A stretch of 64,000 bases of DNA from Parcubacteria group bacterium (GTDB taxonomy: Bacteria > Patescibacteriota > Minisyncoccia > Moranbacterales > UBA2206). Where the stretch lies: the NCBI GenBank assembly GCA_041661275.1, contig JBAZUU010000003.1, forward strand, positions 92,833-156,832. The letters run 5' to 3'. The notes under the pieces are model-generated. The model did not search any database and was not told where the DNA came from. It saw nothing but the letters and a program-made list of their open reading frames with translations. Positions 4,521 to 58,486 of the stretch are shown here, piece by piece (within the stretch, counting starts at the first letter, position 1; the number at the start of each line of letters is the position of its first letter). Made by a program: the position numbers and the translations under genes.

Positions 4521-5840
4521 ATGAAACGAACATTGATCAGTGAAACACCAAGTTTAATAGGAGAAACAGTACGGCTTCAAGGCTGGGTCAATACGCGCCG
4601 CGATCACGGCAAGCTTATTTTTATCGATCTTCGCGACCGGACAGGAGTGGTGCAAATGGTGGTTATTCCAGACAAGATGGAAGCGCACCAAACCGCTAAA
4701 GAAGCACGTAATGAATATGTCATCGAAATAGAGGGCTTAGTCAAAAAGCGTCCAGGGAGTCAAAAAAAAGAGGATAGCGCCACAGGAGAAGTGGAAATTG
4801 AAGTGTCAGAAATGAAAATAATTTCAGCGGTTGCGGGCGAGTTACCTTTTGACACGGCCAAAGCCGAACTTGATCTCAATATCCCGACGCTTCTCGACAA
4901 TCGCCATCTCACTCTTCGCAACAAGAAAATAAATGATATTTTCAAAGTCTATAGCCAGATCCTGAAATCATACGCGGAGGTGATGCGGGAAAACGGATTT
5001 TTAGAAATAAAAACACCAAAAATTGTTTCGGCGGCGACAGAGGGCGGCGCCAACTTTTTTAAGATAAAATATTTCAAACGCGAAGCATTTTTGGCGCAAA
5101 GCCCCCAGTTCTACAAGCAAGCCGGAGTAGGCGCCTTTGAACGTGTTTTTGAAATCGGTCCAGTTTTTCGAGCCGAACCTCATTATACTACGCGACACGT
5201 CAACGAATATATTTCTTTTGACGCGGAAATGGGATTTATTGAAAATTTTTCCGACATCATGGACGCGCTGGAAATGGTTGTCAAAAGAATTGTAAATGAT
5301 ATTGAGAGAAAGTGCGAAGCAGAACTCAGGGATTATCCAAGCGAATTCTTGGTTCCTGACCGTTTCCCGCGGATAAAATTAACCGAAGCGATGGATGTTC
5401 TCAAAAAAGAGTATAACAAAGAAAAAATGGGCGTGGACATCGATCCGGAAGGAGAAAAATTGATTTCCGAATGGGCCAAAAAAACATACGGGAGTGACTT
5501 CATCTTCCTCACACACTATCCAACTTCCGCCAGACCTTTCTACACTATGCCGAGTTCTGATCCGCAGTACACGGAAAGTTTTGACCTCATTTATCGCGGA
5601 GTGGAAATTGTTACCGGAGGACAGAGGATTCATAATCCGGAACAGCTAGTGGCTAGCATAAAAAAACATCATCTTGATCCCAATGATTTCAAGGATTATA
5701 TCGAAATTTTCCGCCTCGGCATGCCGCCACACGGTGGTTGGGCGATAGGATCAGAAAGATTAGCCCAAAAAATTCTGGGTCTCCCCAGCATCAAACAAGC
5801 AATTCTTTTTCCGAGGGATGTGAGGAGGCTTACTCCGTAA
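4521..5840 (+). CDS. aspS: class II aspartate/asparagine--tRNA ligase (archaeal-type AspRS-like)
   Basis: An N-terminal OB fold is followed by the FRAEPHYTTRHVNEY... and QSPQFYKQ motifs and a GGQRIH ending. The protein is 439 aa. Confidence 0.75.
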   Translation: MKRTLISETPSLIGETVRLQGWVNTRRDHGKLIFIDLRDRTGVVQMVVIPDKMEAHQTAKEARNEYVIEIEGLVKKRPGSQKKEDSATGEVEIEVSEMKIISAVAGELPFDTAKAELDLNIPTLLDNRHLTLRNKKINDIFKVYSQILKSYAEVMRENGFLEIKTPKIVSAATEGGANFFKIKYFKREAFLAQSPQFYKQAGVGAFERVFEIGPVFRAEPHYTTRHVNEYISFDAEMGFIENFSDIMDALEMVVKRIVNDIERKCEAELRDYPSEFLVPDRFPRIKLTEAMDVLKKEYNKEKMGVDIDPEGEKLISEWAKKTYGSDFIFLTHYPTSARPFYTMPSSDPQYTESFDLIYRGVEIVTGGQRIHNPEQLVASIKKHHLDPNDFKDYIEIFRLGMPPHGGWAIGSERLAQKILGLPSIKQAILFPRDVRRLTP

Positions 5841-7765: not shown

Positions 7766-7892
7766 ATCCCCCACCACTTTTCCGCTTTTTTCTTTTAAAT
7801 TAAATTGGCCTTATTTAAAGAATTAGCGATTTATTCAGATATTAAAACTTGTTTTTTGCGCCTTTGGCGCAAGCGAAAAAGTGGTGGGGGAT
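7766..7892. repeat. long inverted repeat ATCCCCCACCACTTTTcCGC ... GCGAAAAAGTGGTGGGGGAT with an inner hairpin
   Basis: The arms are direct reverse complements enclosing about 85 nt. The same 12-mer atcccccaccac recurs at 63985-63996. Confidence 0.7.
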
Positions 7893-7901
7893 AAAAAACC
7901 T

Positions 7902-8399
7902 ATGGCAATATCAGCAAAAATAACCAAATATTTGGACGATAATAAGTATAAATATCAGGTCGTCGAACATAAGACCGTTTTTACCGCCTGGGACAAAGCG
8001 CAGACGGAAAAAGTTAAGCCTGCCGAAGTTTCCAAGTCTCTTGTGGTAAAAATTGACAATGATTACGCGTTGGCGCTGGTACCGTCTAATAAAAAACTGG
8101 ATAAGGCTAAGCTTTTGAAAGTTATTAACGCGCAGAGAAAAAAAGAAAAGCTGAAAAATTATAAAAAGCTGGATTTGGCCAAGGAAGTTTGGATGAAAAA
8201 GAGTCTGCCGGGGAAAGTCGGCGCGACGCCACCATTTTCAGGGCTCTTAAAATTGCCGGTATACATTGACGGACTTTTAGCTAAAAACAAGAAAATATAT
8301 GTCGGATCTGGAGAGTACACGTTCTCATTTTTAGTTCCGGTTGGACAGTATTTGAAGATAGAAAAACCAGTAAAGGGGAGTTTCAGCGTCAAAAAATAA
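7902..8399 (+). CDS. YbaK/ProX-family aminoacyl-tRNA deacylase
   Basis: KSLVVKIDNDYALALVPSNKKLDKAKL pattern. The ORF-track start at 7881 is a GTG inside the inverted repeat. The first ATG is at 7902. Confidence 0.55.
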   Translation: MAISAKITKYLDDNKYKYQVVEHKTVFTAWDKAQTEKVKPAEVSKSLVVKIDNDYALALVPSNKKLDKAKLLKVINAQRKKEKLKNYKKLDLAKEVWMKKSLPGKVGATPPFSGLLKLPVYIDGLLAKNKKIYVGSGEYTFSFLVPVGQYLKIEKPVKGSFSVKK

Positions 8400-9266: not shown

Positions 9267-9420
9267 CCGTCATTCTGAGCGAACACGAGCAAAGCGAGTG
9301 TGAGTCGAAGAATCTACTAAAAGTTACCAGGAGTTTTACTATCAAAATTAAAACTTATGGTAACCTCAGGCAGATCTCTCGACTCATTCTCCCTCTGGTC
9401 GAACTCGCTCGAGATGACGG
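9267..9420. mobile_element. MITE-like hairpin element, copy D (chimeric subtype)
   Basis: ccgtcattctgagcg ... cgctcgagatgacgg. The right half matches the GIY-YIG-bearing copy. Confidence 0.75.
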
Positions 9421-13682: not shown

Positions 13683-14948
13683 ATGTCAAAGATTAAAAAA
13701 ATATTTGCGCGGGAAATTTTAGATTCAAGGGGGAACCCGACAGTGGAAGTGGAAGTTGAATTGGAATCAGGAATAAAGGCTATGGCGGCGGTGCCAAGTG
13801 GTGCGTCAACCGGAACATATGAAGCATTGGAACTACGTGATGAGGATGATAGTCGGTACGAAGGTTTGGGAGTTCTCAATGCGTGTGAAAATGTAAATAC
13901 GAAAATTTCCGAAGCTATTATCGGAATGGAGGCAGGAGATCAACAGGCGATAGATAAAAAAATGATCAAACTGGATGGTACGGAAAATAAGTCTGGTCTT
14001 GGTGCTAACGCCATTCTTGGCGTTTCGCTGGCGGTATGTCGCGCGGCGGCTACGGAAAAAAATATTCCACTATACCAATATATCGCCGAGACTTTTAAAT
14101 TTCCAAAGAAATATAAACTGCCTATACCAATGTTTAATGTCATAAACGGCGGACAGCATAGCGATTCAGGACTTTCTATTCAGGAGTATAAAATTGTGCC
14201 AAATGGCATAAAAACATTCAAAGAACAATATCGGGCAGGAAGCGAGATTTTTCACAAACTGAAAAGCCTTTTGGCGAAGGAGGGATATAGTGTTTCAGTC
14301 GGTGACGAAGGTGGTTTTGCGCCGAAACTGGAAAACAACAACCAGCCGTTGGAAATGATGAATAAGGCGATAGAAGAAGCGGGATATAAAAAAGGGGAAG
14401 AGGTAAATTGCGGAGTGGACGCGGCGGCTTCGTCTTTCTATAAGGAAGGAGAAAATCAATATCTATTCAAGCCGGAAAATCGGGCGCTATCGCGCGAAAT
14501 GCTGATCAATATTTATAACGAATGGATTGGAAAATTTAATGTTATTTCCATCGAGGACGGTCTCAACGAGAACGATTGGGATGGCTGGGCGATAATGAAT
14601 GCTAAATTAGGAGACAAAACTATTCAAATTGGTGATGATCTTTTGGTCACTAATGTGAAACGTCTAAAAACGGCCATCGAGAAAAAGGCGTGTAATGCCG
14701 TGCTTATCAAAGTCAATCAGATCGGCAGTCTCACGGAAACTATTGATTGCATAAAATTAGCCAAAAAGAACAAGATGAAAACAGTCATTTCTCACCGTTC
14801 GGGAGAAACGACTGATGATTTTATTTCTGACCTGGCAGTTGCTACCAGTGCTGATTATATGAAATCCGGATCATTGTCGCGAGGGGAGAGAATTTGTAAA
14901 TATAATAGGTTGCTAAGAATTGAAGAAAAAATCAGAACCACTGATTAA
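13683..14948 (+). CDS. eno: enolase
   Basis: IFAREILDSRGNPTVEVEV... and SHRSGETTD motifs. Confidence 0.95.
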   Translation: MSKIKKIFAREILDSRGNPTVEVEVELESGIKAMAAVPSGASTGTYEALELRDEDDSRYEGLGVLNACENVNTKISEAIIGMEAGDQQAIDKKMIKLDGTENKSGLGANAILGVSLAVCRAAATEKNIPLYQYIAETFKFPKKYKLPIPMFNVINGGQHSDSGLSIQEYKIVPNGIKTFKEQYRAGSEIFHKLKSLLAKEGYSVSVGDEGGFAPKLENNNQPLEMMNKAIEEAGYKKGEEVNCGVDAAASSFYKEGENQYLFKPENRALSREMLINIYNEWIGKFNVISIEDGLNENDWDGWAIMNAKLGDKTIQIGDDLLVTNVKRLKTAIEKKACNAVLIKVNQIGSLTETIDCIKLAKKNKMKTVISHRSGETTDDFISDLAVATSADYMKSGSLSRGERICKYNRLLRIEEKIRTTD

Positions 14949-15028
14949 CACTGATTATCTTGATCACACGTGAATTAATTTCTACTCGGTGAAATCATGT
15001 GTGCTCATGTGATAATCTGTGGTTCAGA
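14936..15028. repeat. GAACCACTGATT word (x2) plus the 20-mer GTGATAATCTGTGGTTCAGA before gpmI
   Basis: The same 12-mer is at 26126-26137 and 34974-34985. The same 20-mer is at 35046-35065. Confidence 0.8.
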
Positions 15029-25113: not shown

Positions 25114-26127
25114 ATGTTTAAGAAAAAAAAGACCTACGTCATACTAATTATCATAATCGCGATTGTCGGCAGTGTTTTTTATTTCAAAAATAAAAAACCA
25201 AAAGTGGAATATACGACGCAAGATGTGAAAACCGGAACACTGGCGCAAACTGTTTCCGTGACAGGGGTGCTGGCTTCACCTAATCAGGCCGATTTGTCGT
25301 TCAAAATAAGCGGGCGATTGGAAAAAATGTATGTTGATATTGGTGATCCGGTAGTGAAAGGACAGAAAATCGCGACCATTGACGGAGGAACGCTTAATTC
25401 CCAATTGAATCAGGCCAAGGCAGAATTGCGGTCGCAAAAACAAACACTGGCCAGTATGAAACGGGGAGGATATAACGTAGAAAAAGAAAGGGCGCAAAGA
25501 GAACAGGTGAGGGCTGCGGAGGCGGCTGTTTCGCAAATTTTGGATCAGATTCGCGAAACAACAATATATGCGCCGATTGACGGTTTCATTATAAAAAAGA
25601 GTTCGGAAGTCGGCGAAATCATCGCGGCTAATTCCGCGGCTGGAAACACGCCGGTGGTGACTATCGCCCGAAACGATGATTTGGAAATTCGGACTAATGT
25701 TCCAGAATCGGATATTGTGAAAGTTACGCTTGGTCAAAATGCTGACGTAACGCTGGACGCGCTTTCATCAGCCGATGTTTTCAACGCCAAAGTGAGCGAG
25801 ATAGAGCCGGCATCAACGGTCATCCAGGATGTGGTTTATTACAAAGTGAAATTGAAATTTGATAGCCTTGATCCGCGTTTCAAAAATGGAATGAGCACAG
25901 ATGCGGATATAAAAACAGCCGAGCGTAGCAATGTCGTCTTCGCGCCAATGCGCGCGGTCAAAACCGAAAACGGACAAAAATATGTGGAAGTTCTGAAGGA
26001 TGAAAAAAACGGCGTGACGGAAAAAGTTAATGTTACCACAGGAATGGGAGGCGATGATGGGATGGTGGAGATAAAATCGGGGTTGAAAGGTGGGGAGAAG
26101 GTGGTGACGTTGACGAAGAACATCTGA
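25114..26127 (+). CDS. HlyD/MacA-family periplasmic adaptor (membrane fusion protein)
   Basis: TM anchor, lipoyl-like and beta-barrel segments with a coiled-coil insert. Confidence 0.75.
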   Translation: MFKKKKTYVILIIIIAIVGSVFYFKNKKPKVEYTTQDVKTGTLAQTVSVTGVLASPNQADLSFKISGRLEKMYVDIGDPVVKGQKIATIDGGTLNSQLNQAKAELRSQKQTLASMKRGGYNVEKERAQREQVRAAEAAVSQILDQIRETTIYAPIDGFIIKKSSEVGEIIAANSAAGNTPVVTIARNDDLEIRTNVPESDIVKVTLGQNADVTLDALSSADVFNAKVSEIEPASTVIQDVVYYKVKLKFDSLDPRFKNGMSTDADIKTAERSNVVFAPMRAVKTENGQKYVEVLKDEKNGVTEKVNVTTGMGGDDGMVEIKSGLKGGEKVVTLTKNI

Positions 26128-26165
26128 ACCACTGATTAGCACTGATTGCCACACGATTACACTGA
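26126..26165. repeat. GAACCACTGATT word array immediately at the HlyD stop
   Basis: tgaaccactgattagcactgattgccacacgatt. Confidence 0.75.
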
Positions 26166-26189
26166 ATAATATGTTCCCCCTCTCTTGTA

Positions 26190-26621
26190 CCGTCATCCCG
26201 AGCGGAGTGATGTCGCGTAGCGACAGAACGTAGTCGAGGGATCTGCCAAAGACTATTTCTAGTTATACGATAATGAAGCAACCTTGCGTATATATAATGA
26301 CTAATCATTCCCGGACATTATATATTGGTGTAACTGGTAGTGTTCAAAGACGAGTCTGGGAGCATAAAGAAAAATTAATAGAAGGATTTACAAAAAAATA
26401 CAATATAGACAGGTTGGTATATTATGAATTTTTTGAAGATTTTGCGGGTGCTATAGCCAGAGAAAAACAATTAAAACACTGGAGCAGAAAAAAGAAGATA
26501 TGGCTTATCGAAAAAGAGAATTCTTTATGGCTAGATTTATATGATGGATTATAGTCAGTGGTAACCCAAGGCAGATCTCTCGACTCGTTCGACTTATTGT
26601 CGAACTCGCTCGAGATGACGA
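26190..26621. mobile_element. large member of the CCGTCAT hairpin family carrying a GIY-YIG gene
   Basis: Left end ccgtcatcccgagcgg...agtcgagggatctgcc and right end ggcagatctctcgact...cgctcgagatgacg are reverse complements. They enclose the ORF 26273-26554. Confidence 0.75.
26273..26554 (+). CDS. GIY-YIG nuclease family protein (YhbQ/COG2827-like)
   Basis: The sequence begins MKQPCVYIMTNHSRTLYIGVTG..RRVWEHK and continues through YYEFFED..AIAREKQLKHWSRKKK. Confidence 0.8.
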   Translation: MKQPCVYIMTNHSRTLYIGVTGSVQRRVWEHKEKLIEGFTKKYNIDRLVYYEFFEDFAGAIAREKQLKHWSRKKKIWLIEKENSLWLDLYDGL

Positions 26622-26652
26622 TTTTTTATTAATGTAATTTTGAAAATAAAAA

Positions 26653-26692
26653 AGCCCCATCCTGCTTTGTGGGACGGGGCTGGCTGAGGGCG
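26653..26692 (-). terminator. rho-independent terminator for the minus-strand gene
   Basis: The reverse complement reads gccccgtcccacaaagcaggatggggc followed by tttttatttt. Confidence 0.5.
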
Positions 26693-26748
26693 TTGCCAGA
26701 AAACGTGGTGGCGACGGTCTGTTAATGCTTAGTTCAGCGAAAGAATTT

Positions 26749-27036
26749 CTATTCAGATTTCAAAACAACTTTTTGTATCTTGCCCACATGCTCATTGATT
26801 GCTGTCAGGGCGAGATAGGGGTCTGCTATTATGAAGGAAACTTCGTAGTTTCCAGAATAACTACTCCCGCACTGCTTGATTGAACCTGGAAGCGCTCCCC
26901 ATTCAGTAGTTTTTTTTTCGAGTATCTTTGTCAAATGATCCTTTCCTGCCGAGAAGTGAAGGCCATAAAAAATCACTACTTTCGCTCCATCGGGAATCTT
27001 TTCCAGTGGACTGGTTACTTCCTCATAAAGGTACAT
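26749..27036 (-). CDS. hypothetical protein
   Basis: 95-aa ORF with AGGAGG 8 nt before its ATG on the minus strand. It is the only confident minus-strand CDS in the window. Confidence 0.5.
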   Translation of the reverse strand: MYLYEEVTSPLEKIPDGAKVVIFYGLHFSAGKDHLTKILEKKTTEWGALPGSIKQCGSSYSGNYEVSFIIADPYLALTAINEHVGKIQKVVLKSE

Positions 27037-27122
27037 TTATTTATTGCCTCCTATATGTTAGCGGTTTCAAGTATGTGCCATAGCCTGCTACTAATCTACT
27101 ATTATACACCTAAACCCTCATT

Positions 27123-27854
27123 ATGTCAAATGCATTAATCCAAGTCCAAAATCTTTGCAAAACTTATAGCGATGACGGCGTGAAGACGACGGCGCTTTGT
27201 GGCGCTAATTTTCAAATTGAAAAAGGGGAATTTGTGGCGATTATGGGACCGTCGGGATCCGGGAAATCAACCCTCATGCAGCTTCTTGGGCTTCTTGACA
27301 AGCCGACAGACGGGAAATATATTTTTGAAGGGAAAGACACGACCACTTTTGATGATGACGCCTTGGCGGAATTCAGGAATAAAAGAATCGGTTTTGTTTT
27401 TCAGGCATTCAATCTTTTGCCGAGAACTTCTGTTTATGAAAACGTAGAATTACCATTGCTTTATGACGAAAAGCCGGACAATAATGGCAGTAACAAAGAA
27501 AAGGTGTCAGCGGCGTTAGAAGCGGTAGGAATGAGCCACCGGACTGATTATATGTCCAATCAATTGTCCGGTGGAGAAAAACAACGGGTAGCTATTGCTC
27601 GCGCTTTGGTCAATAATCCGGACGTAGTTTTTGCCGACGAGCCAACGGGAAATTTGGATTCCAAATCAGGAATACGCGTGATGGAAATTTTGCAAAAACT
27701 AAACAACGATGGCCACACTATAATTTTGGTCACGCACGAAACATACACAGCTGAACATTCAAAGCGAATAATATATCTTCGCGATGGCGAGATCGTGGCA
27801 GATGATCCGGTGAAGAATAGGAGAGTGGCGCAAGATGGGGAACTATTGAAATAA
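27123..27854 (+). CDS. ABC transporter ATP-binding protein (MacB/LolD-like)
   Basis: Walker A GPSGSGKST, the LSGGEKQRVAIARAL signature, and the Walker B/D-loop. Confidence 0.9.
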   Translation: MSNALIQVQNLCKTYSDDGVKTTALCGANFQIEKGEFVAIMGPSGSGKSTLMQLLGLLDKPTDGKYIFEGKDTTTFDDDALAEFRNKRIGFVFQAFNLLPRTSVYENVELPLLYDEKPDNNGSNKEKVSAALEAVGMSHRTDYMSNQLSGGEKQRVAIARALVNNPDVVFADEPTGNLDSKSGIRVMEILQKLNNDGHTIILVTHETYTAEHSKRIIYLRDGEIVADDPVKNRRVAQDGELLK

Positions 27855-27859
27855 TTTAC

Positions 27860-27992
27860 CCGTCATTCTGAGCGGAATGAGGCCTTTGGCCGAATGTAGT
27901 CGAAGAATCTACCAAATATTAGCACTAGTGATAATTTATAGCAGATCCTTCGACTACGTCCAATAAGAATTGGACTTCGCTCAGGATGACGG
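27860..27992. mobile_element. MITE-like hairpin element, copy B
   Basis: ccgtcattctgagcgg ... cgctcaggatgacgg, placed 6 bp after the ATPase stop. Confidence 0.8.
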
Positions 27993-29247: not shown

Positions 29248-29254
29248 CCGCCGT

Positions 29255-29390
29255 CATTCTGAGCGGAATGATGCCGCTTTAGCGGCAGAATGAAGTCGAA
29301 GAATCTGCCAAATAATATTACTGGTGATATTTTATAGTAGATCCTTCGACTACGTCCCAATAAGAATTGGGACTTCGCTCAGGATGACGG
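29255..29390. mobile_element. MITE-like hairpin element, copy C
   Basis: ccgtcattctgagcgg ... cgctcaggatgacgg. Confidence 0.8.
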
Positions 29391-34970: not shown

Positions 34971-35065
34971 TCAGAACCACTGATTTTCACGTGATTAAAA
35001 TGATTCCACTGAATTTAAAAAAATCATGTGTAATCAGGATAATCAGTGATAATCTGTGGTTCAGA
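34971..35065. repeat. GAACCACTGATT / CACGTGA / AATCAGTG words plus the 20-mer GTGATAATCTGTGGTTCAGA before porD
   Basis: Direct reading. The 20-mer is identical to 15009-15028. Confidence 0.8.
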
Positions 35066-57749: not shown

Positions 57750-58307
57750 ATGGTAAAGTCACTTATCGACGGAAAAAAAGGAGATCTGGAAAAAGCGCTG
57801 GAACGCTTCAAGGAGGATTTGAACCAATTGAGAACGGGACGCGCCAGCGCGTCGCTTGTTGATTCTCTCATGGTGGATTATTATGGTTCAAAGTCACCTA
57901 TAAAACAGGTAGCCTCAATTACTACGCCTGATCCGAAAACTATTATGATATCTCCCTGGGACAAAGACAATCTGGTGAATATCGAAAAAGCCGTGCGGGA
58001 ATCGCAGCTCAATCTCAACCCGATGAATGATGGCCAAGTGATCCGGATCAATATCCCGCCGCTCAACGAAGAGCGCAGAAAAGAGTTGGTGAAAGTTTTG
58101 AACCAGAAAACGGAAGAATCTCGGGTGGCCATCAGGAAAAACAGAGAAGATGTTTGGGATGAAATTCAAGAACTGGAAAAAAATGGTGACATTGGCGAGG
58201 ATGATAAATTTTCCGGAAAAGAAAGACTGCAAAAGATGATTGATGAGTATAATGATAAAATTGAGGAAATTAGAGAGAAGAAGGAGCAGGAAATAATGAC
58301 AATATAA
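57750..58307 (+). CDS. frr: ribosome recycling factor
   Basis: MVKSLIDG...RTGRASASLVDSLMVDYYGSKSPIKQVASITTPDPKTIMISPWDK. Confidence 0.85.
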   Translation: MVKSLIDGKKGDLEKALERFKEDLNQLRTGRASASLVDSLMVDYYGSKSPIKQVASITTPDPKTIMISPWDKDNLVNIEKAVRESQLNLNPMNDGQVIRINIPPLNEERRKELVKVLNQKTEESRVAIRKNREDVWDEIQELEKNGDIGEDDKFSGKERLQKMIDEYNDKIEEIREKKEQEIMTI

Positions 58308-58319
58308 CAAACAATTTAA

Positions 58320-58486
58320 CCGTCATCCCGAGCGAAGTGAGCCTGCGAAGCAGGAGAACGGAGTCGAGGGATCTGCTAAATACTACTTCAAGTTTAGTTA
58401 TTAGCAGGATTTATAACCAGAGGTAATTCAAGGCAGATCCTTCGACTCCGGTTCGACTTTCGTCGAACCTCCGCTCAGGATGACGG
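58320..58486. mobile_element. MITE-like hairpin element, copy F
   Basis: ccgtcatcccgagcgaagtgagcc...ccgctcaggatgacgg with the inner hairpin ggttcgac-tttc-gtcgaacc. Confidence 0.8.

Follow-up and report, generated by a model that had tools for sequence, protein, structure and literature searches.

What is the gene for a very small nuclease doing inside one member of a family of dispersed hairpin repeats? In a 64-kb stretch of DNA from a genome that looks Moranbacteria-like by its best protein matches (hereafter the window, meaning the whole stretch that was analysed), the 432-bp unit at 26190-26621 consists of a gene for a 93 amino acid GIY-YIG protein lying between two inverted half-modules. 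A sequence-only reading of the window had proposed that this unit is a candidate autonomous element of a kind not described before, with the nuclease as the mobilising activity. The claim to novelty does not stand, as both the nuclease family and its repeats have already been published (Chenal et al. 2025, Nat Commun; PMC11893778).

Chenal et al. defined the Ssn family and the Ssn-related motifs (SRM; known as NTS in Neisseria). Their genome-wide screen showed NTS/SRM repeats to be associated across bacteria with ssnA, a gene encoding a 94 amino acid single-domain GIY-YIG protein (CDD cd10448). SsnA binds the CGTC-tagged hairpin only as single-stranded DNA and cuts a few nucleotides upstream of it; it does not cut double-stranded DNA, RNA or the reverse strand, does not bind RNA and lowers transformation by NTS-bearing DNA. 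Within the site, cutting depends most on the three bases before the stem, and binding most on the C after it. The Neisseria enzyme is inactive when the stem sequence is changed with the hairpin kept; removal or extension of the loop leaves it able to cut. The likeness of the NTS-ssnA-NTS arrangement to an insertion sequence and to RAYT/REP has also been remarked upon (Chenal et al. 2025; PMC11893778). As set out below, the locus in the window adds an example, with a variant repeat, to this known Ssn/SRM system and does not represent a novel type of transposon.

The locus and its inverted arms

The coordinates of the locus and of the related elements are collected in Table 1. The outer arms of the ssn unit (26191-26204 and 26607-26620, 14 nt) are 93% complementary and the inner arms (26232-26247 and 26570-26585, 16 nt) 94% complementary, so that the inverted outer and inner arms around an ORF that the sequence-only reading had described are indeed there. 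The ORF occupies the position taken by a central loop of 26-54 nt in the short copies. The gene had been placed in this one copy only, and tblastn agrees, finding a single ssn copy in the window.

Table 1 Positions of the ssn element, its parts and the ORF-less elements in the 64-kb window
Feature	Position	Strand	Basis or context
ssn gene, 93-aa single-domain GIY-YIG nuclease, Ssn family (by sequence)	26273-26554	+	ORF, Pfam PF01541, identity to gonococcal SsnA
Left SRM-like half-module	26190-26247	+	Inverted-repeat arms, alignment of 12 modules, cis-stem covariation
Left half-module, CCGTC tag	26190-26194		
Left half-module, stem ATCCC paired with GGGAT	26195-26199 / 26238-26242		
Left half-module, tandem G.A	26200-26201 / 26236-26237		
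Left half-module, inserted small hairpin	26211-26225		
Left half-module, tail CTGCC	26243-26247		
Right SRM-like half-module	26570-26621	-	Inverted-repeat arms, module alignment, covariation
Right half-module parts: TCGTC tag, ATCTC/GAGAT stem, inserted hairpin TTCGAC..GTCGAA, tail CTGCC		-	
ORF-less head-to-head dimer, type A, 26-nt central loop	8404-8541	+	5 nt after stop of + ORF 7881-8399
ORF-less dimer, type B, 50-nt central loop	9267-9420	+	8 nt after stop of + ORF ending 9259
ORF-less dimer, type A	27860-27992	+	Between macB-like ATPase (stop 27854) and permease (ATG ~28000)
ORF-less dimer, type A	29251-29390	+	4 nt after permease stop 29247
ORF-less dimer, type B, 54-nt central loop	58320-58486	+	13 nt after stop at 58307

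The start codon at 26273, which gives the 93 amino acid protein, is the correct one, since homologues align from residue 1-2. Public gene calls and many 85 amino acid database entries start instead at M9 and so lose Y7, the first catalytic tyrosine of the GIY motif. Between the ssn element and the ATPase gene lies a 95 amino acid ORF on the minus strand (26749-27036) with no Pfam match, and some relatives likewise have a minus-strand ORF there. Adjoining the right arm of ssn, again on the minus strand, is a GC-rich hairpin followed by a T-run (26646-26690).

The nuclease

Pfam places a GIY-YIG domain (PF01541) at residues 4-75 of the 93 amino acid protein, with an E-value of 4e-14, and finds no second domain; a search of NCBIfam with the protein gave no match. 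For comparison we used the 2.17-Mb chromosome of N. gonorrhoeae, NZ_CP119140.1 (L162), taken from PLSDB. It encodes a 94 amino acid protein that we treat as the SsnA orthologue, as it carries Y6, Y17 and E64 and lies among seven exact NTS repeats. The window protein is 49% identical to it by BLASTP (E 5e-30), with Y7, Y17 and E64 aligning with Y6, Y17 and E64 of the gonococcal protein. In an alignment of 12 diverse homologues, Y7, Y17, R27, H31 and N83 are invariant and E64 nearly so.

Two definitions of an SsnA homologue were used by Chenal et al. (2025; PMC11893778): a looser one, requiring a tblastn E-value below 1e-10 over more than 75% of the length, and a strict one of at least 60% identity to Nm SsnA. 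The window protein falls within the former, with an E-value of 5e-20 over 95% of the query by tblastn against the gonococcal chromosome, and outside the latter, its 49% identity being measured against the gonococcal orthologue and not Nm SsnA itself. On these sequence comparisons, the protein is assigned to the Ssn family, as a member of a subfamily distinct from that of YhbQ.

The label YhbQ/COG2827-type, given by the sequence-only reading, was thus imprecise: E. coli YhbQ is 25% identical to the window protein (E 8e-6), as against 49% (E 5e-30) for the SsnA orthologue, and a YhbQ/UPF0213-type assignment is ruled out. The best match in a sequence search of the PDB is the UPF0213 protein 1zg2 (B. 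halodurans BH0048), at an E-value of 0.0044, and the same search found no Ssn structure. UPF0213, YhbQ and BH0048 are similar to the window protein in size and share its fold superfamily but belong to a different subfamily.

A family of paired hairpin repeats

Allowing up to two mismatches, the outer-arm motif is found 12 times in the 64 kb, where 0.81 matches are expected and none of 100 shuffles reaches 12; the inner-arm motif is found ten times against 0.22 expected. Paired matches define six elements, the ssn unit and five others (Table 1), in keeping with the five ORF-less copies counted in the sequence-only reading. A search of the window with an HMM made from the 12 half-modules returns those 12 alone, with no solo half-modules. 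These counts, together with an invariant sequence core that goes beyond the GC-rich stems, refute the suggestion that the repeats are palindromes arisen by chance, or ordinary intrinsic terminators with no connection to the gene. We find that suggestion hardly credible at all: it has the intergenic position of the elements in its favour and nothing else, and no T-run terminators were called in the region (terminator scan of 25900-27300).

All six elements lie between co-directional genes on the plus strand and share one orientation and one left-right order of modules. The five ORF-less elements begin 4-13 nt past a plus-strand stop codon and finish a short way ahead of the gene that follows. 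Every 4-kb bin of the window has a positive GC skew and the long ORFs near the elements are nearly all on the plus strand, so that transcription and replication direction are inseparable as the cause of the common orientation. Some modules recur between elements. The right module of 9267-9420 has the stem (ATCTC) and inner hairpin type of the right arm of ssn, whilst the left module of 58320-58486 resembles the left arm and its loop bears a weak likeness to the ssn cassette at its 3' end.

When ORFs are called mechanically, the starts of downstream ORFs fall inside right arms at 58480 (the ATG of GGATGAC), 8519 and 27970, and the arms are a likely cause of start-codon miscalls. The AGGA in the arm could serve as the ribosome-binding site of the next gene. 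A second repeat family, CACTGATTANCACTGATT, has three copies in the window against 0.11 expected (26130-26147, 14939-14956 and, on the minus strand, 35041-35058), one of them between the macA stop codon and the left arm of ssn. In two related loci, L082 and L094, the gap between ATPase and permease is filled by palindromic versions of CACTGATTANCACTGATT about 90 nt long.

Anatomy and folding of the modules

The consensus of the half-module is CCGTC-AT-YCY-GA-GCG-[variable small hairpin]-AGTC-GA-RGR-AT-CTRCY, and each of the six elements is a head-to-head pair of such modules. The GTC tag before the stem and the C directly after it are invariant in all 12. The stem has five Watson-Crick pairs, beginning A-T, T-A, followed by a tandem G.A and one G-C. 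In place of a loop of 3-5 nt there is an interior of about 27-33 nt carrying a hairpin of its own, the sequence of which varies with its pairing kept (GTCGC/GCGAC, CCTGC/GCAGG, TCCAAT/ATTGGA and TTCGAC/GTCGAA).

Covariation is pronounced in the cis stem, ATYCY/RGRAT, where 98.6% of cells are paired and three pairs show double compensatory changes, a level reached by none of 500 shuffles. Every one of the six elements combines two modules with different bases at these covarying positions, such as left ATTCT with right ATCCT, from which it follows that selection acts on the cis hairpin and not on pairing between the arms. The arm-to-arm terminal inverted repeats of the sequence-only reading are therefore not supported: the covariation favours each arm folding on itself.

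Predicted stabilities tell a different story. For RNA, folding of the whole dimer gives a long branched hairpin of -62 to -73 kcal/mol (z about -10), whichever strand is taken, and for DNA, with pairing arm to arm, one of -34 kcal/mol (z about -7.6) in which the CGTC tag would lie buried in duplex. For a module on its own, the fold computed with DNA parameters is weak (-8 to -11 kcal/mol, z from -0.8 to -1.9).

The published SRM pattern, HGTCWYN(0-2)YYVSBRHN(0-5)WNVSBRGN(0-2)RNCYNB, has no match in the window, and relaxing the loop to 45 nt yields one irrelevant match there. The same implementation recovers all seven NTS repeats of the gonococcal locus; the window repeats are missed because their loop is enlarged by the extra hairpin.

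The repeats that Chenal et al. linked to ssnA had an earlier description, as CGTC-tagged REPs. The CGTC-tagged REPs consist of an unpaired CGTC followed by a stem that starts A-T/T-A, occur mostly as head-to-head dimers and include the dRS3 repeats of Neisseria and RPE-4/6 of Rickettsia; no dedicated transposase was found for them (Di Nocera et al. 2013; PMC3733652). The window modules share the unpaired tag, the start of the stem, a short 3' tail, the head-to-head arrangement, in which heterodimers are common, and a location downstream of coding regions. They differ in their expanded interior, the stems of the CGTC-tagged REPs being 8-9 bp long with loops of 4-5 nt. Seen in this way, and judging by sequence, the window repeat is a divergent CGTC-tagged REP or Ssn-related motif with an enlarged and structured loop. 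The sequence-only reading had set its proposal of mobility against the chance that the arms are a generic REP motif, and REP-class is indeed what they are (Di Nocera et al. 2013; PMC3733652).

Association of gene and repeat in homologues

Beyond the window we examined 80 homologue loci from about 20 phyla, whose proteins are 55-81% identical to that of the window; 77 of the loci have both flanks. At 61 of these 77, the gene has inverted repeats on its flanks that exceed the 99th percentile of shuffled controls. The repeats nearly always begin (C/T)GTCAT, and their middle bases covary between the two flanks of a locus, as in GTCATTGCGAGCG/CGCTCGCAATGAC and GTCATCCTGAACT/AGTTCAGGATGAC. In L058 and L021, with proteins 56-58% identical to that of the window, the flanking repeats are exact NTS of the Neisseria type. 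The only other contig that encodes an identical protein has the same arrangement as the window. Repeat and nuclease belong together, and the link that the sequence-only reading drew between the gene and the repeat family in which it is nested holds well beyond this genome; homologues without arms, which that reading had named as grounds for refutation if they occurred at many loci, are a minority. The published SRM pattern matches just 14 of the 80 loci, so surveys that rely on it undercount the system.

Nesting is not universal, however. In a Moraniibacteriota MAG (L005:1791-1945), a complete ORF-less dimer of the window type lies directly downstream of ssn with no arm upstream, which shows that ssn is not always found inside the repeat pair. 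Other loci display local repetition: the left terminus of the ssn copy at L002:1421-1445 is duplicated in tandem over 12 nt (TCGTCATTCAGA TCGTCATTCAGAGC), in L011 ssn is preceded by four SRM heads at a spacing of 37 nt, and L065 has several tandem GTCATCC heads.

Could the repeats instead act mainly at the level of RNA, as REP-like operon punctuation (mRNA stabilisers, attenuators or translation couplers), with the nuclease gene either a passenger or a homing-type insertion in one of the loops? The position of the five ORF-less elements between stop codon and next gene, the shared orientation of all six, the stable RNA folds and the location of the ORF in the apical loop of the central stem are all consistent with this. 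Yet the gene-repeat association extends over some 20 phyla and was found independently by a genome-wide screen, and SsnA shows no binding to RNA (Chenal et al. 2025; PMC11893778). Both strands fold equally, as a DNA palindrome would, and no Rfam family matches: at gathering thresholds the whole window yields three tRNAs only, and at permissive E-values the region 26100-26700 yields only weak chance matches outside the arms. Nor does a homing-type gene fit well, as homing endonucleases carry a separate DNA-binding domain that is missing from the 93 amino acid protein. We regard an explanation of the repeats mainly in terms of RNA as quite improbable, although a role in RNA could exist alongside one in DNA.

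Proposed mechanism

The locus is very probably an Ssn-family system, in which the GIY-YIG gene sits between two inverted putative recognition hairpins and five ORF-less pairs of hairpins occupy nearby gaps. By homology, the arms are most likely the recognition sites of the nuclease, and its most likely activity, to judge from its relatives, is site-specific nicking of single-stranded DNA next to modules that have folded on themselves. The steps that follow are extrapolated from the enzymes characterised in Neisseria and Wolbachia. Once the DNA becomes single-stranded, as in the lagging-strand template, incoming transforming DNA or repair intermediates, each module would fold on itself. The Ssn protein would bind to the stem and the C directly after it, and hydrolyse the strand at a point a few nucleotides to the 5' side of the GTC tag, with duplex DNA, RNA and the complementary strand being spared. 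The outcome could be the restriction or trimming of incoming single-stranded DNA as in Neisseria, a nick-stimulated copying that spreads the repeats, or both.

Several observations run counter to this Ssn reading: the published pattern has no match in the window, identity to the gonococcal protein is under the strict 60%, and the modules fold weakly alone whilst the arm-to-arm dimer, with its tag buried, is far more stable. In addition, the window has four stem variants (ATTCT, ATCCT, ATCCC and ATCTC) beside a single ssn gene, whereas the Neisseria enzyme lost activity on a change of stem (Chenal et al. 2025; PMC11893778).

In other respects the resemblance to Ssn/NTS is close. Both have a single-domain GIY-YIG protein of about 94 amino acids with the same catalytic Tyr/Tyr/Glu, encoded by a gene flanked by inverted CGTC-tagged hairpins that are also scattered elsewhere, and the GTC and post-stem C are conserved. 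The window differs from the described systems in its host, a member of the Patescibacteria (Moranbacteria-like), in its stem of five Watson-Crick pairs plus tandem G.A plus one G-C, in having a hairpin-bearing stretch of about 27-33 nt where they have a 3-5 nt loop, so that the published SRM pattern fails, and in that each copy is a head-to-head heterodimer, with the ORF-less copies just past a stop codon. The Ssn/SRM system is thereby extended to a Moranbacteria-like genome of the candidate phyla radiation, and a natural variant of the motif that the published pattern misses comes to light, in which the loop is enlarged and structured and the stem contains a tandem G.A. Each divergent pair of Ssn protein and hairpin is a candidate new specificity for site-specific cutting of single-stranded DNA.

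GIY-YIG homing endonucleases such as I-TevI and I-BmoI have the same type of catalytic domain and a similarly selfish-looking placement. In them, however, the domain is tethered to a DNA-binding domain, they cut duplex DNA and they reside in introns and phage genomes, whereas the window protein is a catalytic domain alone.

Is the cassette mobile?

The rnhA-macA-ATPase-permease operon that surrounds the ssn unit is syntenic in 80 related metagenomic loci, and in all 80 of these orthologous loci ssn is absent between macA and the ATPase gene (the gap is 12 nt in L082), a comparison made between genera and not strains, the closest ATPases being 61-88% identical. Identical element positions in relatives, a possibility raised in the sequence-only reading as a sign of immobility, are thus not what is seen: positions differ between related genomes. 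Modules of the window type number 12 per 64 kb here and 2 per 485 kb in the orthologous loci of relatives, making them about 45-fold denser in the window.

One interpretation of these differences is that of an autonomous transposon, in which CGTC...ssn...GACG moves as a whole with the GIY-YIG protein as transposase, and the ORF-less dimers are internal deletions mobilised in trans. Besides absence from the orthologous slot and the density of modules, three lines of evidence speak for it. First, ssn occurs on two contigs (L002 and L004) of a single MAG, albeit a binned one, and the two copies are 89.7% identical over 415 nt, with homology beginning exactly at TCGTCAT and ending exactly at GGATGACG between unrelated flanks. 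Second, the type-A loops correspond to the ssn copy minus 26264-26559, between CTAGT and TCAGT. The loop of the element at 58320-58486 (c58322) also resembles the 3' end of the cassette, but weakly, being equalled in 8 to 84 of 1000 shuffles depending on trimming and in 84 of 1000 for the whole loop; in a shuffle test of the c9269 loop, an ssn remnant was not significant. Third, the window protein has thousands of homologues, and in distant phyla their identity to it stands at 55-65%.

Other observations weigh against such a transposon. Pfam finds GIY-YIG only, with no DDE, HUH or serine/tyrosine recombinase domain. To our knowledge, a hydrolytic GIY-YIG nuclease forms no covalent intermediate and has no known strand-transfer or joining activity. 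Target-site duplications are absent from all six elements, which have only C...G bases next to their tags. As the two SRMs of an element are oppositely oriented, there is one cleavable site per strand. The window contains a single ssn gene, the L005 gene adjoins a complete dimer instead of being nested in it, and the NTS of Neisseria are not simply nested around the gene. Our search of the literature for a demonstration of mobility in Ssn systems found no paper. Carriage on classical mobile elements is likewise without evidence from searches of phages and plasmids: the phage matches are just three and weak (about 31% identity), and those to plasmids are mostly to chromids or mislabelled chromosomes, with one record only from a conjugative plasmid. 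PLSDB lists the N. gonorrhoeae chromosome NZ_CP119140.1 itself as a plasmid, which inflates 'plasmid' counts for chromosomal genes. All in all, an autonomous transposon seems to us unlikely, whilst mobility of the cassette in some form is plausible but unproven.

RAYT/REP-REPIN and IS200/IS605 systems suggest what such a form might be. They too combine a small nuclease gene between inverted hairpins with dispersed ORF-less doublets, and their enzymes, like the window enzyme by homology, recognise a hairpin in single-stranded DNA and cut beside it. Theirs, however, is a Y1 HUH transposase that forms a covalent intermediate and rejoins DNA, whereas the window gene encodes a hydrolytic GIY-YIG protein (GIY-YIG and not Y1_Tnp according to Pfam). 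We tentatively entertain, as a somewhat doubtful possibility, that Ssn and its hairpin dimers form a REPIN/RAYT-like intragenomic replicator driven by a hydrolytic GIY-YIG nickase of single-stranded DNA. The mobile unit would then be bounded by the two CGTC tags, and the ORF-less dimers would be internal deletions of the ssn cassette, copied to sites just past stop codons through nick-stimulated repair or template switching and recently expanded in a small Patescibacteria genome. With its sharp boundaries at the CGTC tags, the empty slot in relatives and a roughly 45-fold density, the locus offers material for the question of whether Ssn spreads its own repeats.

Other cassettes in the operon gaps of relatives

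The gaps of the orthologous operon hold further small genes. In L098 (3202-3558), a gene for a 118 amino acid DUF559 endonuclease (Pfam E 1.8e-38) lies in the macA-ATPase gap between palindromic arms of the CTCCCTCTCCC...GGGAGAGGG type, and ORF-less arms of this type fill the ATPase-permease gap in L086 (~4740-4880) and L100 (~4775-4990). The layout is that of a small nuclease inside its own hairpin repeat, as with ssn, and we know of no description of it for DUF559. Elsewhere in the intergenic slots of the operon are genes for 23S_rRNA_IVP four-helix-bundle proteins (E 1.9e-29) and an IS200-like Y1_Tnp gene (E 1.5e-5), at L088:4744-5142, L083:4884-5123 and L088:3403-3924. Small cassettes of many kinds seem to land in the gaps of this operon.
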